A stretch of DNA of 64,000 nt, from assembly GCA_017404385.1 (NCBI GenBank), contig JAFRCK010000031.1, positions 13,799 through 77,798 on the forward strand, in the 5' to 3' direction. Positions 19,318 through 58,393 of the stretch are shown here, one piece after another. Source of the stretch: Bacilli bacterium. Its GTDB lineage: Bacteria; Bacillota_I; Bacilli_A; RF39; UBA660. A model generated the notes under the pieces. It was not told the DNA's origin and ran no database searches. It was given only the letters and a program-made list of their open reading frames with translations. Position numbers and translations under genes: made by a program. Each line of letters starts with the position of its first letter. Position 1 is the stretch's first letter.

Positions 19318-21597
19318 ATGGCAAACATGGAAAATTTTTTAAATTCTATTGAGATACCTAATGGTGTTGGTTTTGAAATATATCCTAATACAATTCCATT
19401 TTTGTTTAAGACTAAAGCATTATTTCAGAGTTTTGGCTTAGAAGCGGAAAAAATATTTCAAAAAGTATTAATAAAATATGACTTACCAGTATTTTTTCCA
19501 CTTGAATTTTCATTGTCAGTTGAGTCATGTAATGGTGAAAAACATATTTGTCTTTCTAAATTATTTTTTATAGATACAATATGTAAATGTTTTAATAGGC
19601 AACTTCCAGAAGAACTAAATGATTTCTTTTCTATGGTATCTTCTGGTTATTCTAATCACGCTTTTATGAGAAACGAATTTTTATCAAGTAATCTAAAGAA
19701 TATTACTAAGGGTATTATAAAGGAATTAAATGAAACAAAAACAGTAGAAGATTTTAGAAATGTGAGTAATTATTTATATCAAGTAGTCATTGCTTTAGCT
19801 AAAAAACGAAATATAGGCAATTTAGAATTTCAAAAATTCTTTTTACATTTCCGTGATGATTTAATAAAACAATTGAAAAAAATAATCATATGGTCTGATA
19901 AAATATTAGATGATATTTCCATTCCTTTAGAAAATGAATTATTTAGATATGTAGATATTGATAAATTTAAAATGTATTTCTCGTTTTTATATTTACATAA
20001 TTCTCAATTTGTTAAATCTCCATATAATTTAATATTATATGATTCTGCGTTAAAAATTGTTGATTCTATTGAGAATAAGGATGTTAAAATTCAGAGCATA
20101 TATATTTTTTCTTTTTTTAAAAGTCCTGATAAATCTCTCATAATTGATAATGCTAATATTATAAAATTTAATGAACTATTAAATTATTATAAAAATAGAA
20201 GTAATATAGGCCCTACAAATCTATTAGAGAATTATTCTAGAGGTGATTTTTCTGGAAAAACAATTGATGAGATTCTTGATTTTATTTCAAAAGAGATAGA
20301 AAAAACTATCGAAAAATCTACTGAATTAGGTAGTGAAAATGTAGATGCTAATGAAATGAATTCTAAAATAGATGAACTAGATAGAGAAATTAAATCTGGA
20401 AAACTAGTAGGTAAAGATTTATTAAAAGCAAAACATCAGTTACAAAAATTACATATGGTTATGAAAGAAGTTATGCCAAGAGCTATTCATAAAGGTTTAC
20501 CACCATTTAAAGGATTTTATGTTTATTTTTATGATAATGGTATGGTTGCGATAGATAAAATAGATTATGGATCACGTTTATTTGTTATGCCTGTTTCTAC
20601 TTATAAGTATATTTTAGATAATAAAATTGACAGGTTAAGAAAAGTAGGTAGATTAGATAGTGTTAAAGCTTATAAACATGATGAAAGAACAGATTGGTTA
20701 GGAAAAGCAAAACAAACTATTTTAAATAGTACTGAGTATGTTACTGAAGCTGATAAAAAATATAATGAACAAATAGATGGATGGAATTTTGGATACACTC
20801 AAGAAGATATTGATAAAATAAAGAATACTATTGAATTAATAGAAAAAGATGTTTCTTTAACTATTGATGAAAAAGATAAGATTAAAAAAGAAATTGAAGA
20901 AAAAGCAAAAAAGAAGAGAAAGAAGAAACAAAAAGCTAATGAAATAGATAGTGAATTAAAACAATCTAATCCAAAGTCAGAAGAAGAAATGACTAAAAAG
21001 GATAATGATGAATTAGCCATTTTAGAAAGTAGATTAGATGATGAATTTGGTAATGATTCTGATTTTGATGAATTATATGAAGCAGAAAAAAAGTATAAGA
21101 AAAATGGAAATAGATGCGCTTCTGTATCTAAATTTGGTAAAGATAGAACTATAGATGAAAATGGTATGTATCACTGTGAAATGTGTAATAATACATATTC
21201 AATAGAACAAAAATCTAGATTAGACTATCATCATTTTATACCAATCTCAAAAGGTGGCCCTGATACTCTATATAATGGAATATGTTTATGTACTGAATGC
21301 CATAGAATAATCCATTATGAGAAAGAAAGAATTCCAATTAGTACTCAAGGTTATATTTTATCTTTAATAGAAAAACATATTAGAGAAGAAAACCCTGAAC
21401 TATTAGATAAATTTATTGAATATAAAAATTATTTCTTTCCAGATATTAATGAATTAATATCTAATGAAAGAAATAGATTAAAAAAACAAGGATTATCTGA
21501 ATCTATGATAGATATTATTATAGAAGAAAAAAAAGAATTATTATTAAATGAATCTAAAAAATATGTAAAGGGATTTGAATTAAGATATCATAAATAA
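19318..21597 (+). CDS. Large protein with an uncharacterised ~600-aa N-terminal region, a K/E-rich coiled-coil, and a C-terminal HNH endonuclease domain
   Basis: C-terminal CEMCNN...DYHHFIPISKGGPDTLYNGICLCTECHRIIH (HNH with CxxC Zn ligands). RBS GGAGG. Confidence 0.6.
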   Translation: MANMENFLNSIEIPNGVGFEIYPNTIPFLFKTKALFQSFGLEAEKIFQKVLIKYDLPVFFPLEFSLSVESCNGEKHICLSKLFFIDTICKCFNRQLPEELNDFFSMVSSGYSNHAFMRNEFLSSNLKNITKGIIKELNETKTVEDFRNVSNYLYQVVIALAKKRNIGNLEFQKFFLHFRDDLIKQLKKIIIWSDKILDDISIPLENELFRYVDIDKFKMYFSFLYLHNSQFVKSPYNLILYDSALKIVDSIENKDVKIQSIYIFSFFKSPDKSLIIDNANIIKFNELLNYYKNRSNIGPTNLLENYSRGDFSGKTIDEILDFISKEIEKTIEKSTELGSENVDANEMNSKIDELDREIKSGKLVGKDLLKAKHQLQKLHMVMKEVMPRAIHKGLPPFKGFYVYFYDNGMVAIDKIDYGSRLFVMPVSTYKYILDNKIDRLRKVGRLDSVKAYKHDERTDWLGKAKQTILNSTEYVTEADKKYNEQIDGWNFGYTQEDIDKIKNTIELIEKDVSLTIDEKDKIKKEIEEKAKKKRKKKQKANEIDSELKQSNPKSEEEMTKKDNDELAILESRLDDEFGNDSDFDELYEAEKKYKKNGNRCASVSKFGKDRTIDENGMYHCEMCNNTYSIEQKSRLDYHHFIPISKGGPDTLYNGICLCTECHRIIHYEKERIPISTQGYILSLIEKHIREENPELLDKFIEYKNYFFPDINELISNERNRLKKQGLSESMIDIIIEEKKELLLNESKKYVKGFELRYHK

Positions 21598-21623
21598 AAT
21601 TATATGTTATAATATATTTAACA

Positions 21624-21707
21624 TCTTATAAAGAGAGACGGAGGGACCAGCCCTATGAAGTCTCACCAACCTATTAAGTTAGGTGGTAATGCTGGATCTA
21701 TAAGATA
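21624..21707 (+). promoter_or_regulatory. SAM-I (S-box) riboswitch aptamer
   Basis: CTTATAAAGAGAGACGGAGGGACCAGCCCTATGAAGTCTCACCAACC...AGGTGGTAATGCTGGATCTATAAGA matches the S-box consensus (CTTATCAAGAGAGGCAGAGGGACTGGCCCGACGAAGCCTCAGCAACC...). The P1 3' strand ATAAGATAAC can alternatively pair with GTTATCTTG in the downstream terminator. Confidence 0.85.
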
Positions 21708-21717
21708 ACTTTTTAAA

Positions 21718-21747
21718 GAACTCAAGGTTATCTTGGGTTCTTTTATT
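21718..21747 (+). terminator. Riboswitch expression-platform terminator
   Basis: GAACTCAAGG/CTTGGGTTC stem followed by TTTTATTATT. Confidence 0.7.
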
Positions 21748-21775
21748 ATTTATAGGATGTTAGAAAGGAGGATAT

Positions 21776-21979
21776 ATGGAATTATCTAAATTACAAAGAT
21801 ACACCTATGAAGAAAGAAAAAATGTAATATTAAAATTTCAAAGACTATATAAAACTTTAGAAGCTAAAGAAAAAGTATTAAGAATGATGTCTAATAATGA
21901 TATTAATTTCTTAATTTATTGTATGGATAATATACATGGAAAGATATTTTATTCTAAATTTATAAAGAAAGGAGAATAA
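21776..21979 (+). CDS. Small hypothetical protein (67 aa), first gene of the riboswitch-controlled operon
   Basis: RBS AGGAGG before the ATG. No recognisable motif. Confidence 0.4.
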   Translation: MELSKLQRYTYEERKNVILKFQRLYKTLEAKEKVLRMMSNNDINFLIYCMDNIHGKIFYSKFIKKGE

Positions 21980-21981
21980 TT

Positions 21982-22764
21982 ATGATAGAAAAAGTAAATC
22001 CATCTCATCCAGATAAACAAGCTGATAGAATTGCTGGAGCTTTAGTTGATCTAGCATATTTAAAAAACAATAATCCTAAAATTGCTGTGGAAATCTTATT
22101 AGGACATGGTAAATGTCATATAATAATAGAAACTAGTGAAGAGTTTTCCACCAGTGAGGTACAATCTATAGTAAATAGAATAGTTGGTTCGGTAACACTT
22201 GATCTACAAATAGTAAAACAAGATATAGAACTTGCTAAAAATCAAGAGGGTAAGATTAGATGCGGTGATAATGGAATTTTTAAAGGAGTTCCATTAAGAG
22301 AAGTAGATATAAAATTATCAAATATTGCTAGATCAATATATAAAGAATTTCCTTATGATGGGAAATATGTATTAGATAAAGATAAATTAATTATTTGTCA
22401 AAGTCATGATAAAGAAGATGTTCTTAAGAAAGAATATCCTGATGCCATAGTTAATCCACTAGGTTATTGGACCGGTGGTATTGATTCAGATAGTGGTGCT
22501 ACCAATAGAAAATTAGGTTCTGATATGGCAGAGTCTGTTAGTGGTGGTGGAATACATGGTAAAGATTTATCTAAGTGTGATGTTTCAATAAATATATATG
22601 CTTTTTTAAAAGCACAATCTACTGGGAAAATACAAAAATATAGCTGCGCTATAGGAGATGAATACGTTGATAATATACCATATAGTGAAATTGTTAAGAT
22701 TGCAAAGGATTATATTGATAGTATAGGTGGTTTTGAGAAATTAGCAGAATGGGGATTATATTAA
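21982..22764 (+). CDS. Miniature MetK-like protein (candidate methionine adenosyltransferase-like, 260 aa)
   Basis: Three MAT hallmark motifs in the right order: SHPDKQADRIAGALVD (cf. GHPDKIADQISDAVLD), RCGDNGIFKG (cf. GAGDQGLMFG) and GGGIHGKDLSKCDVS (cf. GGGAFSGKDPSKVDRS). Protein is ~2/3 the length of canonical MetK. Confidence 0.55.
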   Translation: MIEKVNPSHPDKQADRIAGALVDLAYLKNNNPKIAVEILLGHGKCHIIIETSEEFSTSEVQSIVNRIVGSVTLDLQIVKQDIELAKNQEGKIRCGDNGIFKGVPLREVDIKLSNIARSIYKEFPYDGKYVLDKDKLIICQSHDKEDVLKKEYPDAIVNPLGYWTGGIDSDSGATNRKLGSDMAESVSGGGIHGKDLSKCDVSINIYAFLKAQSTGKIQKYSCAIGDEYVDNIPYSEIVKIAKDYIDSIGGFEKLAEWGLY

Positions 22765-22845
22765 ATACTAGTATGTAAAACAAGTAATATCAATTGCTTG
22801 TTTTTATATTGAGTTATGTTATAATTAATTTAGGAAGTGACTGGT

Positions 22846-23073
22846 ATGGGATTATTTGGAGATGATAAAAAAAAGAAGAAACAACAAGATATAGGTGCAT
22901 TATTCTTTATGAATGATGCATTAAATGATAATGAGTATGATGATGAAGAACTAGATGATTATGGTTTAACAGAAGAAGAAAAAGAATTGGTTCGTAAAGG
23001 AGAAAATGATCCTTGGAATTTTGATGAAGAAGATTTAGAAGATGATGATTTTTATGGAGAAGATGATGATTAA
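22846..23073 (+). CDS. Small, extremely acidic (D/E-rich) protein
   Basis: DDEELDDYGLTEEE...DEEDLEDDDFYGEDDD. The island's left junction lies 10 nt after its stop codon. Confidence 0.4.
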   Translation: MGLFGDDKKKKKQQDIGALFFMNDALNDNEYDDEELDDYGLTEEEKELVRKGENDPWNFDEEDLEDDDFYGEDDD

Positions 23074-23333
23074 TCATCTTTTTTAATTGCTCTCTTCCCC
23101 CCCTGACACCTCTTTAGACCTTATTTTATAATGCTTTTCAACTATTTTAGACACCATTTAGATTCCAGCAATTTCTTCAGTTCAGAGAGAGCGTTCACAC
23201 CAGTTCATAATTGACTCTATATAGGATTAAGAATACATTATTATATTAAATTGAAATATCAAAATCATTATAATCTTTTCATGGTATAATATTTATTAGA
23301 GATTATTTAATTTATAAGGATAGTGGTAGTAAT

Positions 23334-24581
23334 ATGTCTAACTATTTTAAAAACATTTCAGATAAAGATGCTTATGATATTTTAAGAAATAAATTCTTTT
23401 TCAATTATAAATATAAGCTAAAAAGCAAAATAACGATTTCTGAGCAATTTAAATTAGTTGCTAGAAATATAAATAATGATGAAATTGAAATATTAGGAAA
23501 GTCAATGATAGAAAAAATAAATGATATATTTATGTTTATAAATAGTAAGGAAGATTTTTACGATAACAATAAAAAAAATAAAGCTTTTCAATCATATTTG
23601 AAAAGAGCTACTGAATTTGATATTAAAACACCAATAATATTTGATCTAGATGGTAATGAATTATATGATATTTATAAAAAAATATTTGATATAATTTCTG
23701 ATAATTACGATTTTATTGATTTAGACAATAAATATAATAGTGCAATGAAAATAACGAATAAATACCTTTCTAGTTTAATTGTTATTTATTCTGAAGATAT
23801 AAATAGTATATATGATTTTATTAAGAATAATAGCGATATTTCAGAAGAATTAATTGAAGATCATTATGATGATTTTATATATAAATATATAGATTTTTGG
23901 AATTCTATTAATTTTAAACAATATAATTATTTAGGAATAAAACTCTGCAAATTTAAAACAAAGTTGAAATCATATTTGTTTATTTCTGACTTAAGTAAAA
24001 GTAATTTTTGTAATGAATGTCTGGGGGTTTTTAAAAATCCTATAGATATTCAGGTTTATGATAATAAATTGTTATATTTGATTGTTAGTAGGTTTAATCC
24101 TATGGGGTATATGGATGACAATAATAGAATAGTATTATATTGGTCATTATTAGAAATGCTATTAACACACAAGCCAAATGATAATTATATAGATGATACT
24201 ATTCAGAAACAATTAACTAGGAATATAACAGATTGCTTTCAAAAATATGGTGTTAATAAAATAAGCAAAAAAGAAATACGATTATTGTATGATTATAGAT
24301 CTGTGATTTCACATGGTGAATTTCTTGAGATTGATAAAATACTAAATAAAATAAAAAAATTAAATTTTATAAATGAATTAAAAGATGCATTAGCAATTGA
24401 AGATGATTTGAAAAAAGGAGATATAGTAGATATTATAAGAATACGTTTACTATATATTTATTCAACAATAATGAAATCATATTTTAATGATTATAAATAT
24501 ATTGTCAATTTAAAAGAATATAGAATTAAGAAAAAAATAATCGTTGATATTATTAAAAATATATTTATAAAGCATGAATGA
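23334..24581 (+). CDS. Hypothetical protein with a possible HEPN-like Rx4H motif (candidate Abi-type protein)
   Basis: YDYRSVISHGEF (R-x4-H). First gene inside the island. Own promoter (TGGTATAAT). Confidence 0.35.
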   Translation: MSNYFKNISDKDAYDILRNKFFFNYKYKLKSKITISEQFKLVARNINNDEIEILGKSMIEKINDIFMFINSKEDFYDNNKKNKAFQSYLKRATEFDIKTPIIFDLDGNELYDIYKKIFDIISDNYDFIDLDNKYNSAMKITNKYLSSLIVIYSEDINSIYDFIKNNSDISEELIEDHYDDFIYKYIDFWNSINFKQYNYLGIKLCKFKTKLKSYLFISDLSKSNFCNECLGVFKNPIDIQVYDNKLLYLIVSRFNPMGYMDDNNRIVLYWSLLEMLLTHKPNDNYIDDTIQKQLTRNITDCFQKYGVNKISKKEIRLLYDYRSVISHGEFLEIDKILNKIKKLNFINELKDALAIEDDLKKGDIVDIIRIRLLYIYSTIMKSYFNDYKYIVNLKEYRIKKKIIVDIIKNIFIKHE

Positions 24582-24648
24582 TATATTAATGTATTAGAAT
24601 TATCAAAAAATGATTTTTTTGTTATAATGCTTACAGAGGTGATTATTA

Positions 24649-25434
24649 GTGGATAATAAACTTTTAAATGATTTTATTTCATATTTTGAAAAAGACAAAT
24701 ATAAATTTGAAAATTTTTGTAAGATTTTTTTAACATGGCTTGGTTTTGATGATGTTATTGTTACTCAAAAGAGTGGAGATAAGGGAATTGATTTAAGATG
24801 CACTAAAAAAGAAATTGATAAATTAGATACTACAGAAATAGAATATATTGTTCAAGCAAAATGCTATAAACACGGAAATAATGTTTCTGGACCAGAAATA
24901 AGAAATTTTAAAGGGACAAGAGAAACATTAGGAAAAAGAAGATTATTTATTACAACAAGTGATTATACAAGTTCAGCAAAAGAAGAAGCATCTGATCCAA
25001 ATCAACCTGTTACTCTTATAAATGGAGAAAAGATTATTGATTATTGTAAGTCTTTGGGTGACCAAGTATTTGATATTCATTTTTCTTGCAATAAACAAAA
25101 ATTAGATGACTTGTTTGTGGAAAGTGCTAATGACAATACAGTTGATAATAAAATAGATGAAGTTATTAAAAGAATTACTAAGAATGATGTTAGAGCTAGA
25201 ATATTAAGAATTCCTAGTGAGTATAAGAATGACCTTAAGGGAAAGAAAAAATATAAATTGATAATTAATGGTAATTTAAAGGAATATTTTAATATTAGCT
25301 CTGATGAAAGATATTTTGGTGGCATTACAAAATATTATAAAACTTTTATACAAGATAAAGATTTTGTGGATGCACAATCATTATGGAAGTTCGATAAACA
25401 AAATGAAATAATTTATGTTGAAATAAAAATGTAG
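24649..25434 (+). CDS. Restriction-endonuclease-fold protein with N-terminal Mrr-cat-like PD-(D/E)xK domain plus a ~130-aa C-terminal domain (GTG start)
   Basis: GDKGIDL...EYIVQAKCYK core. RBS AGAGGTGA before the GTG start. Strong terminator at 25438..25480. Confidence 0.6.
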   Translation: MDNKLLNDFISYFEKDKYKFENFCKIFLTWLGFDDVIVTQKSGDKGIDLRCTKKEIDKLDTTEIEYIVQAKCYKHGNNVSGPEIRNFKGTRETLGKRRLFITTSDYTSSAKEEASDPNQPVTLINGEKIIDYCKSLGDQVFDIHFSCNKQKLDDLFVESANDNTVDNKIDEVIKRITKNDVRARILRIPSEYKNDLKGKKKYKLIINGNLKEYFNISSDERYFGGITKYYKTFIQDKDFVDAQSLWKFDKQNEIIYVEIKM

Positions 25435-25437
25435 TAA

Positions 25438-25480
25438 TAAACATATTTATTATACATTGTGTATGTAAATATGTTTTTTT
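25438..25480 (+). terminator. Terminator after the Mrr-cat gene
   Basis: AAACATATTTA ... TAAATATGTTT followed by TTTTTT. Confidence 0.7.
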
Positions 25481-25519
25481 ATGTTATAATATTATTTAGA
25501 AATGGTAGGTGGTAATAAT

Positions 25520-26398
25520 ATGAAAAGAAAACAGAATTTAGTCCTTCAACCTGTATTGAAATGGGCTGGTGGTAAAAGACAATTATTACCACAATTAGAA
25601 AAATTTTTCCCTAAAAAAAATATAACTTCATATTATGAACCTTTTATAGGTGGAGGAGCTGTGTTATTCCATTTACAACCTAAAAAAGCTGTAATTAATG
25701 ATTATAATGAAGATTTAATTAATCTTTATAGATGCATAAAAGATAATTTAGAAGAATTAATAGAAAAATTAAAATATTATGAAACAAAGAATAATTCTGA
25801 AAGTTTTTATGAAATTAGAGGAATTGATAGAACTGAAGAATATAAAAAATGGTCACCTGTTGAAAAAGCAGCAAGATTAATATATTTAAACAGAACTTGC
25901 TACAACGGATTATTTAGAATGAACAGTGCAGGTCAATTCAATTCACCTTATGGCTCTTATAAGAATCCTTGTATATGCAATGAACCAGTTCTTAGAGCTA
26001 TGAGTAAATATTTTAATGAAAATGATATTGAATTCAAAGCTGGTGATTTTGAGGATGCGTGTAAGGATGCTCCTAAAGGTTCATTTATCTATTTGGACCC
26101 ACCATATGATCAATATGATGAACAACTAAACTTTGTTGGATATACTAAAGATGGTTTTACTCGAGAAGATCAAACTAGATTAAAGAAAATGTGCGATAGA
26201 TTAATTGAAAAAGGTTGTTATGTTATGATTAGTAATTCAAAAACACCTTTTATAGTTGATTTATATAGTGACTCATCTAAGTATGTTACATATACAATTA
26301 ATACTGTTAATGCCAGAAGAAATATTAACAGTAATGCAAAGAAAAGGGGAGAAGTTGAGGAGGTTTTGATCATTGGAAAATTGGATATCGAAAAATAA
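25520..26398 (+). CDS. Dam-family N6-adenine DNA methyltransferase
   Basis: N-terminal LKWAGGKRQLLPQL. Catalytic YLDPPYDQY (DPPY motif). RBS AGGTGG. Confidence 0.9.
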   Translation: MKRKQNLVLQPVLKWAGGKRQLLPQLEKFFPKKNITSYYEPFIGGGAVLFHLQPKKAVINDYNEDLINLYRCIKDNLEELIEKLKYYETKNNSESFYEIRGIDRTEEYKKWSPVEKAARLIYLNRTCYNGLFRMNSAGQFNSPYGSYKNPCICNEPVLRAMSKYFNENDIEFKAGDFEDACKDAPKGSFIYLDPPYDQYDEQLNFVGYTKDGFTREDQTRLKKMCDRLIEKGCYVMISNSKTPFIVDLYSDSSKYVTYTINTVNARRNINSNAKKRGEVEEVLIIGKLDIEK

Positions 26399-27668
26399 TG
26401 AAGCATGGAATTTATTGTTTGATAAATACAATATTGTAAATGAGATTAATAAAAATGGATATTTTGAAATAGCAGCTGATGAGATTAAAACTTCAGGTAG
26501 AGAACCTCGTCTAATGACTAAATTTGATAGTAGTGAAAATTTGCCAGATATTTTTAAAAGTAATCAATTGGCCATATTACCTATAAAACGTGGATCATAT
26601 ATTATTGGCAAATTTCAAAATTATCAATTAGTAGATATTAATAATGATATAGATGTAGAAACAAAGTATTTACCAGATTATATAACTACTATTGATTATA
26701 ATAATATAACAAGTGAAGCAATTTCTTTAAATGCTGCTTATATATCTGGTATGCTTGAAGATATAATAGGTGAACCTGTGGTTCCTACTATTTCTGGTAG
26801 AATGGGAACTGGTGAATTTAAATATCAAATATTATTAAACGATCAAAATTCATTTGATATAAATGTTGAAAATTCGCAAATGGAAATTGACGGAAGTTAT
26901 GAAGGTATTTCTAAATTTGTTATATTAGAAGCCAAAAATCATTATATGAAAGATTTTATAATCAGACAATTATATTATCCATATAAGGTATGGAAATTAA
27001 ATACTAATAAGGAAATAATACCAATTATGTTAATTAAACATGACAACATATTTAATTTCTTTGTATATAGTTTTGAAAATGAAAATGATTATAATAGCAT
27101 CAAACTAAAAGAAATTAAACGATATATATTAGATGAACCTTATAATCCTATTGAAGTTTCAGATATTATGAATGTAATGGAAAATATTGAATTTGCTACA
27201 GAATCTAGTGATGTTCCATTTCCACAAGCTAATACATTCAATATAGTATTAGACTTGTTAGGACAATTAAATGGTCAAGATATGACACCGGATGATATAA
27301 CAAATTTCTTAGAATATGATCCAAGACAAACTAATTATTATATCGATGCTGCAAAGTATTTAGGATTTGTAACAAAAGAAAAAAAGTATACATTAACTGA
27401 ATATGGTAGACGTATAATGAAGATGAATCATAAAGATAGAACATTAGAAATTGTTAAGAGTATTTTATCTCATAAACCATTTTATTTAGCAATGAAACAA
27501 CAATTGGATGATTTTGATTTTAATATAGAAGAAATTGCTAAATCTATAGATGAATGTAGAAATGAAATTAATAAAGAGAGTACAGCTAAGAGAAGAACAA
27601 GTACTGTTACAGCTTGGGTAAAATGGATTTTAGATATTACAAATTATATTGATAAAATTTATTTATAA
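26373..27668 (+). CDS. Putative restriction endonuclease partnered with the Dam-like MTase (PD-ExK motif); TTG start overlapping the MTase stop
   Basis: Strong RBS GAGGAGG 9 nt before TTG 26373, overlapping the last 26 nt of the MTase. Motif EIDGSYEGISKFVILEAKNH (D...E-A-K). Confidence 0.5.
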   Translation: MENWISKNNEAWNLLFDKYNIVNEINKNGYFEIAADEIKTSGREPRLMTKFDSSENLPDIFKSNQLAILPIKRGSYIIGKFQNYQLVDINNDIDVETKYLPDYITTIDYNNITSEAISLNAAYISGMLEDIIGEPVVPTISGRMGTGEFKYQILLNDQNSFDINVENSQMEIDGSYEGISKFVILEAKNHYMKDFIIRQLYYPYKVWKLNTNKEIIPIMLIKHDNIFNFFVYSFENENDYNSIKLKEIKRYILDEPYNPIEVSDIMNVMENIEFATESSDVPFPQANTFNIVLDLLGQLNGQDMTPDDITNFLEYDPRQTNYYIDAAKYLGFVTKEKKYTLTEYGRRIMKMNHKDRTLEIVKSILSHKPFYLAMKQQLDDFDFNIEEIAKSIDECRNEINKESTAKRRTSTVTAWVKWILDITNYIDKIYL

Positions 27669-27721
27669 ATTAAACTAAAAAATTAGACATTTATAAAATT
27701 GTTAAAGAAAGGAATGATAAT

Positions 27722-28720
27722 ATGAAAGGAATTTATAAAGAATTAAAAATTGAAAATATAGAATTAGATATGTCTAACCCGAGAATAGCTAAATATATTG
27801 AAATGTATGATAAAGAAAGTTTATCAAGTGAAGCACTTGCATTGGCATTAGGAAGTGGAGTTGAAGATTCTGGGCAAACAAATTATAATAGCTTATTTAA
27901 TTCTATAAGAACAAATAAAGGAATTATTCATCCTATTTTGGTTAACCATCAAGAAGATGGTAAATATGTTGTAATTGAGGGTAATACAAGATTAAAAATA
28001 TACCAAGAATTTAAAGAAAATAATGTTGATGGAGATTGGGATACAATACCATCAATTGTATATGAAAAATTAAGTTCAGATGAAATACATGCAATTAGAT
28101 TACAATCCCATTTAGTTGGTCCTAGAGAATGGGATCCATATTCTAAGGCAAAATATTTATATAATCTTTGTTATATTGAAAATTTACCAATGAACCAAAT
28201 AATAGATTTTTGCGGTGGTAAAACTAATGAAATTATGAAATATATTCATGCGTATCAAGATATGGAAAAATATTATAGGCCAAAGCTTGAAGCTGAAGAT
28301 GAATTTGACCAAAGAGAGTTTTCTAAGTTTTTGGAATTTCAAAATACTACTGTCAAAGAAGCAGTTTTATCACAGTTTACAATGGAAGATTATTCGCAAT
28401 GGGTAATTGATGGAATTGTTGATACAGCAATAAATGTTCGTAAGTTGCCCCAAATACTAAAAGAACAAAAGGCAACAAAAAAATTATTAAAAAGTAATAT
28501 CAAAGAAGCATATGAGGAAACAATTACTAATAAACCTGGATATAGAGATTTAAATACTGTTTCGTTAGAACAATTATGTATAGAATTAACAAATAGAATT
28601 TATAATATGCAATTAAAAGATTATAAAGAAATAAAAGACGGAAACAGTGAGTTAGGAGCATCTATAACAAATCTTAAATCAACTTTAGATTGGTTTGTTG
28701 AGGATATAAATAAGGACTAA
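27722..28720 (+). CDS. ParB/Srx-superfamily (ParB-like nuclease domain) protein, paralog 1
   Basis: N-terminal NPR box (LDMSNPRIA). HPILVNHQEDGKYVVIEGNTRLKIY (ParB-like catalytic/NTP-binding segment). Homologous to the 30601 gene (LVGPREWDPYSKAKYLYNL vs IIGRKDWEPYEQAGYLYRTL). Confidence 0.6.
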   Translation: MKGIYKELKIENIELDMSNPRIAKYIEMYDKESLSSEALALALGSGVEDSGQTNYNSLFNSIRTNKGIIHPILVNHQEDGKYVVIEGNTRLKIYQEFKENNVDGDWDTIPSIVYEKLSSDEIHAIRLQSHLVGPREWDPYSKAKYLYNLCYIENLPMNQIIDFCGGKTNEIMKYIHAYQDMEKYYRPKLEAEDEFDQREFSKFLEFQNTTVKEAVLSQFTMEDYSQWVIDGIVDTAINVRKLPQILKEQKATKKLLKSNIKEAYEETITNKPGYRDLNTVSLEQLCIELTNRIYNMQLKDYKEIKDGNSELGASITNLKSTLDWFVEDINKD

Positions 28721-29151
28721 TGGAATCAGATAAGCATCACTCACTTGTAAAAAAAATATATAATTATGTAAGAAAATTATATTTTGTTGAAGATGGACTC
28801 ATAGAATCAGATATATATGAAATTCATGGAAATGTAACAAGAATGCCAGAAGGTTTTATACCGGATTTATTTTATATGCATAATAATTTATTAATAATAG
28901 GCGAGGCAAAAACAAATGATGATATAGAAAAAGAACATAGTTTTCGCCAATATAATTCATATTTTAAGTATATTAGTAATAAATCAAAAAAAGGTATAAA
29001 TTGTATTTTTATTATAGCTGTTCCGTGGGAATGCACAAAAACTGCTTTAAGAATTTTTAAAAAATATTCAGAAAATATTAGGGTAAAATTAGTAATTATA
29101 AATGAATTGGGAGTTTATAAAGAATATGAAAAAAATTGTATTGGAAAATGA
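28720..29151 (+). CDS. Small PD-(D/E)xK-fold nuclease-like protein
   Basis: IPDLFYMHNNLLIIGEAKT (D...E-A-K). Start overlaps the upstream stop (TAATGG). Confidence 0.45.
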   Translation: MESDKHHSLVKKIYNYVRKLYFVEDGLIESDIYEIHGNVTRMPEGFIPDLFYMHNNLLIIGEAKTNDDIEKEHSFRQYNSYFKYISNKSKKGINCIFIIAVPWECTKTALRIFKKYSENIRVKLVIINELGVYKEYEKNCIGK

Positions 29152-30601
29152 ACCAAAATATGAAGCCAAATTAAAGTCTTTTATTTACCAATCTCAAGCG
29201 GTAGATTTTGTAAAAGATCTTGAATATGCTGCTATCTTTCATGAACAAGGTTTAGGAAAAACAAAAATAGCATTAGACATTGCTTTATATTGGATATCAA
29301 AAAGAGAGATTGATACAGTATTGATAGTCACAAAAAAAGGGTTAATAAAGAATTGGGAGGATGAAACAAAAATACATTCATTTTTACATCCAAAAGTATT
29401 AAATAATAATAAATCTAGTAATTATTATGTTTTTAATAGTGCAACTAGATTAATAATAACTAATTTTGAAACTATTTCTATCGAAAAAAATAGATTTAAA
29501 CTATTTCTTAAATCAAGAAACGTTGGTGTAATAATTGATGAATCAGCAAAAATAAAAAATCCAAATTCTCAATTAACAAAAGATTTTTTCGAATTATCGC
29601 CTTTATTTGTCAGAAAAGTAATAATGACTGGAACACCAGTAGCAAATAGACCTTATGATATTTGGGCACAAATATTTTTTTTAGATAATGGAAAAAGTCT
29701 GGGAGAAAATTATAAAGAATTTAAATCTAAATCTGACTTATCAAATAAACTTTCGTCTGATCTTAATAAAAAAAATGATTTTGAAAACTTTATTTCTAGT
29801 ATTTTTGATAAAATAAGTGATTTTTCAATTCGTGAAACAAAAAAAAGTGCAAACTTATACCTCCCAGATAAAATTTATCATGACATATGGACTATGTTCA
29901 CTCCAGAGCAAAAGAATATGTATGATAAATTGAGAGAAGAATTGAGAATTGAATTAATTCGTGATGACAAAAAGGAAGAAGATGATGTATCTTCTGTTTT
30001 AAAAAGAATCCTAAGGCTGGAACAGATAACATCAAATCCAAAAATGTTAGATGAAACAATTAATTTTAAGTCTGGTAAAGAAATTGAGTTAAAATCACTT
30101 GTAAAAGATATAGTCAATAGAGGTGAAAAAGTAATAATATGGACAAATTATATATATAATATAAATTATATTAAAGAAATGTTTTTGAAATATAATGCAG
30201 TAACAATAAGTGGAAATATGACTATTGAACAAAGAAATGAATCAGTTAAAAGCTTTAAAACTGGTGATTCTATGGTTTTAATAGCAACACCACAGTCAGC
30301 AAAAGAAGGATTGACTTTAACTGTAGCAAATAATGCGATTTTTTATGATAGAGGATTTAGCTTAGATGATTATCTTCAGGCACAAGATAGAATACATCGA
30401 ATTTCACAAACAAAAGAGTGCAATATATATAATATTATGATAAGGGGAAGTATTGATGAATGGATCCATAAATTATTATTAGTTAAGGAGAAAGCTGCAT
30501 CATTAGTACAAAATGATGTATCAAAAGATGAGTATGTCAATTTAGTGGATTATTCTTATGACAAAATTATAAAAAGAATACTTGATGTGGAGGAAAAATA
30601 A
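29102..30601 (+). CDS. SNF2-family helicase (minimal core; the start may instead be ATG 29126)
   Basis: Motif I EQGLGKTKIALDIALYW, motif II DESAKIKNP, motif VI QAQDRIHRISQTKECNIYNIM. Overlaps the upstream gene. Confidence 0.85.
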   Translation: MNWEFIKNMKKIVLENEPKYEAKLKSFIYQSQAVDFVKDLEYAAIFHEQGLGKTKIALDIALYWISKREIDTVLIVTKKGLIKNWEDETKIHSFLHPKVLNNNKSSNYYVFNSATRLIITNFETISIEKNRFKLFLKSRNVGVIIDESAKIKNPNSQLTKDFFELSPLFVRKVIMTGTPVANRPYDIWAQIFFLDNGKSLGENYKEFKSKSDLSNKLSSDLNKKNDFENFISSIFDKISDFSIRETKKSANLYLPDKIYHDIWTMFTPEQKNMYDKLREELRIELIRDDKKEEDDVSSVLKRILRLEQITSNPKMLDETINFKSGKEIELKSLVKDIVNRGEKVIIWTNYIYNINYIKEMFLKYNAVTISGNMTIEQRNESVKSFKTGDSMVLIATPQSAKEGLTLTVANNAIFYDRGFSLDDYLQAQDRIHRISQTKECNIYNIMIRGSIDEWIHKLLLVKEKAASLVQNDVSKDEYVNLVDYSYDKIIKRILDVEEK

Positions 30602-31608
30602 TGAGCAAGTTAATTAACGATATTTTAATAATTGGTAATGTGGATTACGAAATTAAAAGAACTGAACTTAAACAAAAAGATTTAAAGTTTTTTCCTGAAA
30701 ATCCAAGGGTATTTAGTGTTTTAAATATGACAGATGAAGAGCCTACGCAGGAACAAATAGAAGAAATAATGTGTAAAACAGAACATGTGAAAAAATTAAA
30801 AGAATCAATTAAATCTAATGGAGGTTTAATTGATCCTATATTTGTAAGAGATGGAGATATGGTTGTTTTAGAAGGAAATAGTAGGTTAGCGGCATATAGA
30901 ATTTTACATAAGCAAAATCCTATTAGATGGTCTAAGCTTAAGGCAATATTGTTACCAAAGGATATTCCTGATTCAGCAGTTTTTTCTCTGTTAGGACAAT
31001 TTCATATTATAGGAAGAAAAGATTGGGAACCATATGAACAGGCAGGTTATTTATATAGGACATTATGTGATACTAATAAGACTATTGAAATATTGGCAGC
31101 AGAATTAGGTATTACAAAATCTTCTATAAAAAAATTAATTGACGTCTATGAATACATGCTTGAAAATGGTGATAATCATCCAAGCAAATGGAGTTATTAC
31201 GAAGAATTATTAAAGAATCGTGGTATTAAGAAAGCGTTTGAAGAAGTACCAGGATTAGAAGATAAAATTATAGATGACATTAAAAACAATAAAATTCGTA
31301 TGGCAATTGACATAAGAAAATTAGGAGATATTAGTAAAGTTAATGATAATCTTTCTAGAAGAATATTAAATGACATTGCGAACGGGGAAAGAGATATTTA
31401 TAGTGGATATGAAGTGGTTGAGGATACTGGAAAAATGGATAATAATTATCAATATATTAAAAATTTTAAAGAAAAAATTCTAAATTCATCTTCAACAGGA
31501 AAATTGTTGAAAGATAAAAATATTAATGATATAGAATTTGAATTGAAAAAAATACAAAAAATAATTGAAAATATTTTATTGAATATAGAAAAAGATAAAA
31601 AACAATAA
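30601..31608 (+). CDS. ParB/Srx-superfamily (ParB-like nuclease domain) protein, paralog 2
   Basis: FPENPRVFSV (NPR box). IDPIFVRDGDMVVLEGNSRLAAYRIL. Start overlaps the SNF2 stop (TAATG). Confidence 0.6.
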   Translation: MSKLINDILIIGNVDYEIKRTELKQKDLKFFPENPRVFSVLNMTDEEPTQEQIEEIMCKTEHVKKLKESIKSNGGLIDPIFVRDGDMVVLEGNSRLAAYRILHKQNPIRWSKLKAILLPKDIPDSAVFSLLGQFHIIGRKDWEPYEQAGYLYRTLCDTNKTIEILAAELGITKSSIKKLIDVYEYMLENGDNHPSKWSYYEELLKNRGIKKAFEEVPGLEDKIIDDIKNNKIRMAIDIRKLGDISKVNDNLSRRILNDIANGERDIYSGYEVVEDTGKMDNNYQYIKNFKEKILNSSSTGKLLKDKNINDIEFELKKIQKIIENILLNIEKDKKQ

Positions 31609-31619
31609 TGGAGTTTAAA

Positions 31620-32000
31620 ATGAAAAAAAGAGTCTTTATATTTATAATAATGGTATTACCTTTACTATGCTTGATTGTACTTGACTTTATAAATATAACA
31701 AAATATTTTCCGTTTACTAAAAGTTATGACTGGCTTTCTTTTTTTGGGGCATATATATCTGGTCTATGTACCTTGATTTTAGGAATTGTATCTATAAAGC
31801 AAAATAATACTCTATCTAATTTAAATAAAAAAATGTTGAATAATGATGTTGTTTCATCTAGTTTTTCAAAAATTGATGTAGAAAATGAACATTTCTATGA
31901 AAAGGTACCATTGCTTCCATTGGATAAAGCGTATGGAATTATTATGAAGGAAAATTGGAATAATAAAAATGATACTAATTATCATAGATTTATTATATAA
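31620..32000 (+). CDS. Small 2-TM membrane protein
   Basis: Hydrophobic helices. RBS AATGGAG. Distal part of the island operon. Confidence 0.4.
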   Translation: MKKRVFIFIIMVLPLLCLIVLDFINITKYFPFTKSYDWLSFFGAYISGLCTLILGIVSIKQNNTLSNLNKKMLNNDVVSSSFSKIDVENEHFYEKVPLLPLDKAYGIIMKENWNNKNDTNYHRFII

Positions 32001-36644: not shown

Positions 36645-36718
36645 AGGGGTGTAGTTAAATGGTATAATAGGAGTCTCCAAAACTTTTGTTGGGAGTTCGA
36701 TTCTCTCCACCCCTGCCA
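36645..36718 (+). tRNA. trnW: tRNA-Trp (anticodon CCA)
   Basis: Acceptor AGGGGTG/CACCCCT. Anticodon loop CTCCAAA. T-arm GGGAG-TTCGATT-CTCTC. Discriminator G then CCA. Terminator at 36728..36758. Confidence 0.85.
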
Positions 36719-53484: not shown

Positions 53485-53560
53485 GGCCTGTTGGTGAAGC
53501 GGTTAACACATTGCCCTCTCAAGGCAACATTCATGGGTTCAAGTCCCATACAGGTCACCA
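53485..53560 (+). tRNA. trnE: tRNA-Glu (anticodon read as CTC)
   Basis: Acceptor GGCCTGT/ACAGGTC+A+CCA. Anticodon stem TTGCC/GGCAA with loop CTCTCAA. T-arm ATGGG-TTCAAGT-CCCAT. Terminator at 53572..53599. Confidence 0.8.
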
Positions 53561-58316: not shown

Positions 58317-58393
58317 TGGGGCGGAATAAGGGGATCGAACCCTTGCATACCGGAGCCACAATCCGGCGTGTTAACCACTTCACCAACTCCGCC
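58317..58393 (-). tRNA. trnH: tRNA-His (anticodon GTG) with G-1
   Basis: Minus-strand sequence: G-1 + GCGGAGT... Anticodon stem CCGGA/TCCGG with loop TTGTGGC. T-arm AAGGG-TTCGATC-CCCTT. ATTCCGC + C + CCA. Terminator at 58281..58314. Confidence 0.85.

Follow-up and report, generated by a model that had tools for sequence, protein, structure and literature searches.

The window analysed here is a 64,000-nucleotide (64-kb) stretch of contig JAFRCK010000031.1 from a Bacilli bacterium. On its + strand it carries an operon (21605-22764) in which a promoter, an S-adenosylmethionine (SAM)-I riboswitch aptamer, a terminator and a Shine-Dalgarno (SD) sequence are followed by open reading frames (ORFs) of 67 and 260 amino acids (aa). 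Our results suggest that this is a SAM-repressed transcription-attenuation operon containing a phage-derived minimal methionine adenosyltransferase (MAT) and providing SAM under negative feedback; we put the probability of this interpretation at about 0.72. A two-gene operon of this composition had been proposed in an earlier inspection of the letters (hereafter the sequence-only reading), and both ORFs lie where it placed them. The operon contains the following features:

21605-21613, + strand: extended -10 promoter TGtTATAAT, read from the sequence, nine bases 5' of the aptamer
21623-21706, + strand: SAM-I aptamer (RF00162), 84 nucleotides (nt), 66.6 bits in Rfam against a gathering score of 44.4, E 2.5e-13
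21623-30 with 21699-706, + strand: aptamer helix P1
21635-39 with 21660-64 and 21643-45 with 21651-53, + strand: aptamer helix P2
21665-73 with 21680-87, + strand: aptamer helix P3, short
21647-50 with 21692-95, + strand: pseudoknot between the P2 loop and J3-4
21702-21734, + strand: antiterminator, in which the P1 3' strand and linker AAGAUAACUU (21702-11) pair with AAGGUUAUCUU (21724-34)
21715-21753, + strand: intrinsic terminator, a 13-bp stem (21715-21743) plus the tail TATTATTTAT, from the terminator scan and the minimum-energy fold
21748-21765, + strand: pre-SD element AUUUAUAGGAUGUUAGAA, complementary to the first 16-17 nt of the transcript (21617-21633)
21767-21771, + strand: leader SD GGAGG, read from the sequence, serving the 67-aa ORF in the window
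21776-21979, + strand: 67-aa ORF from the ORF list, a four-helix small protein with unassigned function and the motif DINFLIYCMDNIHGKIFYSKF
21970-21974, + strand: AGGAG, the 260-aa ORF's own SD
21982-22764, + strand: 260-aa mini-MAT (phage-type 'S-adenosylmethionine synthetase', PHROG 1569), from the ORF list, profiles and the model

The aptamer is the sole riboswitch detected by Rfam in the window. Its match spans the full RF00162 model (1-108), and related loci score 60.9-67.5 bits against the same model. The leader resembles the S-box leaders of metK genes in Bacillus and Clostridia (RF00162) in its SAM-I aptamer, whose P2 bears a kink-turn and whose P2 loop forms a pseudoknot with J3-4. 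The sequence-only reading had called it a canonical S-box aptamer. The S-box assignment stands, but the word canonical goes a little too far: unlike in the metK leaders, P4 is all but missing and P3 is short, so that the aptamer is 84 nt long rather than ~108. More specifically, Rfam aligns a single P4 pair and deletes 18 model positions, and the J3/4-to-P1 gap is 8 nt only, 4 of them belonging to the pseudoknot strand. At 21692-21698 the pseudoknot strand GCUGG is followed by just 3 nt before the P1 3' strand. Natural P4-less SAM-I aptamers are perhaps worth a ligand-affinity check.

Metagenome contigs scanned with a pattern of this aptamer subtype yielded at least 120 stretches, with 80 loci listed. 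Across 61 distinct related leaders the aptamer pairs are formed in 99.8% of the cells, and six pairs show compensatory double changes (four of the five P2a pairs, one in P3 and one in the pseudoknot, the last being C-G to U-A). None of 500 shuffles reaches these pairing and covariation values, and slid alignments are 31-45% paired. Moreover, loci with MAT genes at a synonymous divergence (dS) of ~0.7 share an identical aptamer, and the aptamer is invariant where coding dS is 0.7-1.1, which argues for strong constraint on the RNA. The 84-nt RNA is predicted to bind SAM.

The transcription start is predicted at about 21617-21620, ~5 nt 5' of the aptamer, and TGnTATAAT or TATAAT is found at an equal distance from the aptamer in related loci. 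The box at 21605-21613 is absent from the output of the consensus promoter scan because it lacks a -35 element. The sequence-only reading had also seen a terminator/antiterminator platform, and the terminator scan and a length-dependent switch of fold both bear this out. When transcripts of growing length are folded, P1 has the lowest energy up to 21728 (-25.3 kcal/mol), the antiterminator replaces it for transcript ends at 21732-21736 (-30.0 vs -25.3 kcal/mol for P1), and with the complete 3' arm P1 plus terminator wins (-39.2 vs -34.1 kcal/mol with the antiterminator forced). As in S-box metK leaders, terminator and antiterminator are mutually exclusive, the latter using the P1 3' strand. 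It differs from those leaders in that its other strand, AAGGUUAUCUU, consists of the terminator loop and the first bases of the terminator 3' arm. Shuffled sequence gives 0.4 terminator-like sites per region in the terminator scan. In the related leaders (76 were compared, from L012, L047-L053 and L055-L134) GTTATCT is kept in nearly all, and the remaining terminator stem varies; its sequence differs by locus and the hairpin always forms. Conservation across leaders extends to the complementary 8-mers AAGATAAC and GTTATCTT. Such a platform is what one would expect if the leader is an OFF switch under kinetic control and SAM decides between the two outcomes by stabilising P1. Transcription would begin ~5 nt 5' of the aptamer. 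With SAM bound, P1 would be closed, the downstream hairpin would form and RNA polymerase would terminate at ~21745-21753. With SAM scarce, the P1 3' strand and linker would pair with the terminator loop and 3' arm. Readthrough would then extend into the 67-aa ORF and into the 260-aa gene, which is coupled to it in translation; the stop codon of the former lies 2 nt ahead of the ATG of the latter. If this is true, expression is controlled by product feedback on a SAM synthetase gene, as in the S-box metK leaders.

Unlike those leaders, the one in the window has an additional conserved helix between the mRNA 5' end and the pre-SD sequence. Its 5' partner (21617-21633) includes the P1 5' strand, and the pre-SD element ends 1-5 nt ahead of the SD. 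In the full leader the helix is the dominant element of the minimum-energy fold (-51 kcal/mol). In the 76 leaders the mean duplex energy is -11.1 kcal/mol, compared to -5.8 +/- 1.9 for shuffled 5' segments. Positions in the helix are paired in 77.6% of cases vs 40-57% in slid controls, counts that lean to structure because the alignment was anchored on the predicted duplex. Compensatory changes replace ACAUC:GAUGU by GAAUC:GAUUC or UAGUC:GAUUA. We infer that in read-through transcripts the helix would lock the aptamer open and bury the 5' end, which in turn should stabilise the mRNA. The helix may protect the 5' end or lock the ON state.

Regarding the 260-aa protein, the three MAT motifs are found in canonical order, as the sequence-only reading described: SHPDK (9-12), CGDNG (94-98) and GGGIHGKDLSKCD (189-200). 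Further MAT residues are E37, E50, Q80, DGK128, D170 and R176-K177. The N-terminal Pfam domain PF00438 is recognised at 38.9 bits (threshold 33.1). hhalign aligns the protein with canonical MetK at 99.3% probability over 233 columns, the E. coli MetK sequence used being consistent with the PDB MetK matches. The alignment pairs H9/D11/K12, E37, E50 and Q80 with E. coli H15/D17/K18, E43, E56 and Q99; D96, K128, D170 and R176/K177 with D119, K166, D239 and R245/K246; and K194, K198 and D200 with K266, K270 and D272. Equivalents of the E. coli active-site residues H14, D16, K17, E42, E55, Q98, D118, K165, D238, R244, K245, K265, K269 and D271 are all aligned, and every E. coli MetK residue known to bind ATP, methionine, Mg2+ or K+ has a counterpart. 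In 34-38 diverse family members most of the catalytic and ligand-binding positions show little or no variation. K177 does not appear in the list of conserved columns, and the motif GGGAFSGKD is changed to GGG(I/L)HGKD.

Structure prediction and superposition on MetK, which had been put forward as a check, gave a compact AlphaFold model (predicted local distance difference test, pLDDT, 95.8; predicted template modelling score, pTM, 0.93) in which 247 of the 260 residues superpose on MAT. The model contains three beta-alpha-beta-beta-alpha-beta repeats, superposable on solved MATs, and a gating loop. Compared to canonical MetK (E. coli, TIGR01034; PDB 5h9u, 4le5, 6rk5), the protein has 260 rather than the 377-415 residues of the solved MATs found, and shares ~23% identity. 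Relative to E. coli MetK ~125 peripheral residues are lost: the tip of the repeat-2 hairpin, ~45 residues at the C-terminus, and loops and helix extensions, among them long helices and loops in repeats 1-2. Model, superposition and hhalign agree that all three repeats are shortened, in line with the claim that each of the three domains is compressed. As modelled, the 260-aa protein is a MAT in its fold and has all catalytic residues. It would be a minimal MAT that keeps the three-repeat core, the gating loop and the residues for ATP, methionine, Mg2+ and K+.

The family to which the protein belongs is, by its annotation, already described. It is a common phage auxiliary gene, usually beside DNA methyltransferases. 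The claim that so short a MAT-like protein is not a described class is contradicted by four records: PHROG 1569, to which residues 1-259 match with E 7e-62 (function 'unknown' in PHROGs v4); an identical NCBI protein named 'S-adenosylmethionine synthetase [Bacilli bacterium]'; the S-adenosylmethionine synthetase (K00789) auxiliary gene present in 58.9% of Heliusvirales genomes (De Jonge et al., PMC11283538); and a Streptococcus agalactiae prophage MetK with a '135-amino-acid truncation', linked genetically to aggregation and biofilm phenotypes (Renard et al., PMC8223999). Relatives at 61-67% identity are found in Streptococcus Javan prophages, Gardnerella phage vB_Gva_AB1, a Terrisporobacter phage and gut Ca. 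Heliusvirales phages; the phage-borne genes compared also included the MetK of Streptococcus Javan and 12/111phiA prophages and ORF19 of vB_Gva_AB1. These genes (PHROG 1569; K00789 of Ca. Heliusvirales) agree with the window gene in family, length and motifs. Their usual neighbourhood is an HNH gene, a small-terminase-like gene, the MAT and then DNA methyltransferase genes. Unlike the phage genes, which lie in such DNA-modification modules and have no riboswitch, the clade of the window gene is found on chromosomes, where its members are solitary or part of a defence island, and is predicted to be regulated by SAM. In the literature on short or phage MATs and phage SAM riboswitches we found homology-based annotation and the genetic study PMC8223999 only.

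Several points weigh against the proposed operon function. The central domain PF02772 is undetected and the C-terminal domain PF02773 reaches 12.6 bits (threshold 25). The score of 40.3 bits against the TIGR01034 metK equivalog cut-off of 309.4 means that by sequence rules the protein is not a MetK. The active site of MATs forms across a dimer interface, and the model used here is of the monomer. The PDB contains no short MAT among its solved structures, the closest of which has ~24% identity, and an enzyme assay of a short MAT was not found in the literature searched. On the RNA side, the aptamer lacks P4, the U-tract of the terminator is interrupted and the pre-SD alignment has the bias mentioned above. 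The tree discussed below has no support values.

The low TIGR01034 score and a length 125 aa short of E. coli MetK could also be taken to mean that the ORF is a decayed remnant of a full-length metK, and a longer metK broken by frameshifts had been named as the case in which the original proposal would fail. We consider such decay hardly credible. The 120 closest homologs are all 260-263 aa long. An exhaustive HMMER search gave 193 clusters at 50% identity with E <=1e-30, the full-length members being mostly 260-320 aa. The ratio of nonsynonymous to synonymous substitution rates (dN/dS) of the MAT gene is 0.16-0.22, the model is compact and confident, the shortening is distributed over loops and helices of all three repeats and is not a terminal cut, and the flanking DNA in other frames does not encode the missing segments.

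An intact MAT fold could also have another job, either as a decoy or regulator that binds host MetK or phage SAM lyase, or as an enzyme acting on another nucleotide or amino-acid substrate. Divergence from canonical MATs is strong (just 1153 of 1.8 billion representatives reach E 0.001), the glycine-rich motif is altered as described above, and catalytic activity is a prediction from sequence and model. It has been shown that a phage SAM lyase binds and inactivates MetK (PMC8406200; PDB 8bb1). We nevertheless regard another job as unlikely. All catalytic and ligand-binding residues are kept, most of them near-invariant, which would be needless in a decoy. The predicted switch-off specifically by SAM is the logic of a product-repressed synthetase, and near-identical leaders also stand ahead of canonical metK. 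The 260-aa protein most likely makes SAM from ATP and methionine, and the operon would then be a negative-feedback SAM supply. The suggestion that SAM-repressible expression of a MAT-like enzyme fits metK-type regulation agrees with this, since SAM-repressed expression fits SAM as the product. For a widespread phage auxiliary gene so far named by homology only, the riboswitch is independent, sequence-only evidence that SAM is the product. A more modest reading is that the protein would be the smallest natural active MAT. If active, with its 260 residues it would fall ~30% below the size of every MAT whose structure has been solved; such a protein would mark out the minimal catalytic core and be of use in enzymology and in engineering SAM-analogue synthesis.

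The 67-aa ORF between leader and MAT needs to be considered as well. The encoded protein has 67 homolog clusters at 59-99% identity with an invariant C-terminal motif, its dN/dS is 0.32 and its model is a confident four-helix bundle; by these comparisons the protein is real. It is not a fragment of the small-terminase-like gene that precedes the phage MAT, as hhalign finds no similarity between them. PADLOC-DB gives one marginal match, Cas11a (E 6e-4), which is taken to be chance. Loci fetched via the 67-aa protein alone have the riboswitch upstream in 5/5 assessable cases and a MAT in some only. Placing a phage-type MAT behind a small ORF is a further difference between the window and S-box metK leaders. 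At L049 and L050 an unrelated 82-aa ORF takes the place that the 67-aa ORF has in the window; at L012, L047 and L053 the leader SD directly serves the MAT as the first gene; and at L051 the MAT is also the first gene and has its own second SD ~35 nt further downstream.

The first gene after the riboswitch was recorded at 73 assessable metagenome loci of this aptamer subtype, among the matches listed. It is a mini-MAT in 17 of these loci and a canonical-type MetK in 5. Most of the remaining loci, about half of the 73, start with members of at least 8 unrelated small-ORF families, and many of these have no MAT within several kb. One may therefore suppose that the riboswitch mainly regulates the 67-aa or other small ORFs and that the MAT is a downstream passenger, as the 67-aa family has the SAM riboswitch with or without a MAT (L178 and L179 are without). 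This seems improbable to us, given that the MAT is the first downstream gene, with no intervening ORF, in the 17 metagenome loci as well as in L012, L047, L051 and L053, that the two ORFs in the window are coupled, and that riboswitch-linked MATs form a single clade, which points to long co-inheritance of leader and MAT. Since the same leader stands ahead of unrelated small ORFs, many of them without a MAT, the leader appears to be a portable promoter-riboswitch unit that would act as a SAM-responsive module. This also differs from the S-box metK leaders, as the window-type unit recurs nearly unchanged before unrelated genes. Uncharacterised small proteins behind the leader thereby become open to study as SAM-responsive genes.

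Among these small proteins is a Cys-rich one of 80-99 aa with the motif FPFVVD...FW(V/I)C(E/D)SITCCACAAQ, which is behind the leader in 20 of the 73 assessable loci, mostly with no MAT nearby (L055-L134, e.g. L088, L104, L078 and L119; also L049:3748-3996). It has no significant Pfam match. At least 6 further unrelated small-ORF families are found behind the same leader.

The distribution of the riboswitch bears on the origin of the operon. Close homologs of the MAT (73-83% identity) were obtained by exact protein look-up and a genome scan, and every one examined has the riboswitch upstream. No riboswitch was found in 19 scanned loci with more distant, phage and prophage-like homologs, and the aptamer pattern has no match in 2.9 million viral contigs. 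The riboswitch is thus not a general trait of the phage family. In a neighbour-joining tree the riboswitch-linked MATs all fall into one clade beside the phage clade. Clade members sit among locus-specific chromosomal genes, including pyrG, uvrB, rlmN and ispH-like and queH-like genes. On other contigs near-identical leaders precede canonical-type MetKs of 340-371 aa (L059, L064, L069, L112 and L116), and the 340-aa MetK of L064 passes TIGR01034 at 331.8 bits. The most economical account is then the capture of a phage mini-MAT behind a copied S-box leader of canonical metK. The source of the 260-aa gene would be a phage-family gene next to DNA methyltransferases and without a riboswitch. One clade would have entered the chromosomes of low-GC gut and rumen Bacilli and gained an S-box leader like those found ahead of canonical metK. 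In this way the locus would record an evolutionary event, the capture of a phage gene by host chromosomes and its placement under a metK-type S-box leader. What appears to be new here is a chromosomal, S-box-controlled mini-MAT clade, solitary among housekeeping genes or in a restriction-modification (R-M) island, with a P4-less SAM-I leader. The use of one leader ahead of several unrelated small ORFs, the 67-aa family included, and the conserved helix between mRNA 5' end and pre-SD region also appear to be new.

Two observations were made on the canonical-type MetKs behind the leader. The 340-aa MetKs lack the last ~40 residues of E. coli MetK yet pass TIGR01034. The MetKs of L069 and L116 share their first ~120 residues and then diverge (57% vs 40% identity to E. 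coli), a pattern suggestive of a recombinant metK.

In the window the operon is preceded by the chromosomal genes uvrA, lgt and whiA and stands at the head of a restriction-modification or defence-like island:

19318-32000: defence-island-like cluster, with neighbours of the MAT that PADLOC-DB assigns to Type II R-M, Mrr/Type IV and SNF2 models
within 19318-32000: HNH protein of 759 aa
24649-25434: Mrr-type nuclease
25502-26398: Dam-like methyltransferase
26373-27668: Type II restriction enzyme, partner of the Dam-like methyltransferase
27722-28720 and 30601-31608: two ParB_N proteins
29102-30601: SNF2 helicase

The PADLOC matches of the Dam-like methyltransferase and the Type II restriction enzyme have E values of 1e-95 and 2e-82; the 260-aa MAT has no match among the PADLOC-DB defence models. 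The mini-MAT at the head of the island could secure SAM for methylation. A more far-reaching possibility, to which we give little weight, is that the cassette is a SAM-depletion alarm and a back-up of the defence island. An infecting phage would destroy SAM or polymerise host MetK (the strategy of T3-type SAM lyase), the riboswitch would open, and the stripped-down MAT, without the surfaces bound by such inhibitors, would restore SAM for the neighbouring R-M systems. In this scenario additional effectors of SAM starvation would include the 67-aa family and the Cys-rich FPFVVD...CxSITCCACAAQ family, among others. Like the mini-MAT, the phage T3 SAM lyase (SAMase) is encoded on a mobile element and alters the host SAM pool in a restriction-modification/BREX context. 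It differs in that it destroys SAM and inhibits MetK, has an unrelated fold and has no riboswitch.

An intact prophage around the locus is not supported: the region at 26-52 kb contains no phage structural genes, and the neighbouring Type II R-M, Mrr, HNH, SNF2 and ParB_N genes are followed by housekeeping genes. The gene content of the island echoes the DNA-modification module of Heliusvirales phages. Two features lie directly 3' of the MAT gene:

22778-22805, + strand: weak hairpin of 7 bp with a 12-nt loop, followed by TT, seen by eye
22817-22825, + strand: next extended -10 promoter, 3' of the hairpin

The hairpin may be the end of the operon; it is not listed by the terminator scan because it has just 2 G-C pairs. 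The promoter belongs to a 78-aa ORF (22837-23073) directly 3' of the MAT, an extremely acidic protein with a D/E-rich C-terminus that resembles a DNA-mimic anti-restriction protein by composition only. The MAT has no conserved downstream partner, this acidic ORF included, as the genes that follow it vary between loci.

A canonical metK was not found within the window. The window is a chromosomal segment of an uncultured Bacilli metagenome-assembled genome with a G+C content of 25%, and its tRNA genes are Trp-CCA (36645-36718), Glu-CTC (53485-53560) and His-GTG (58317-58392).

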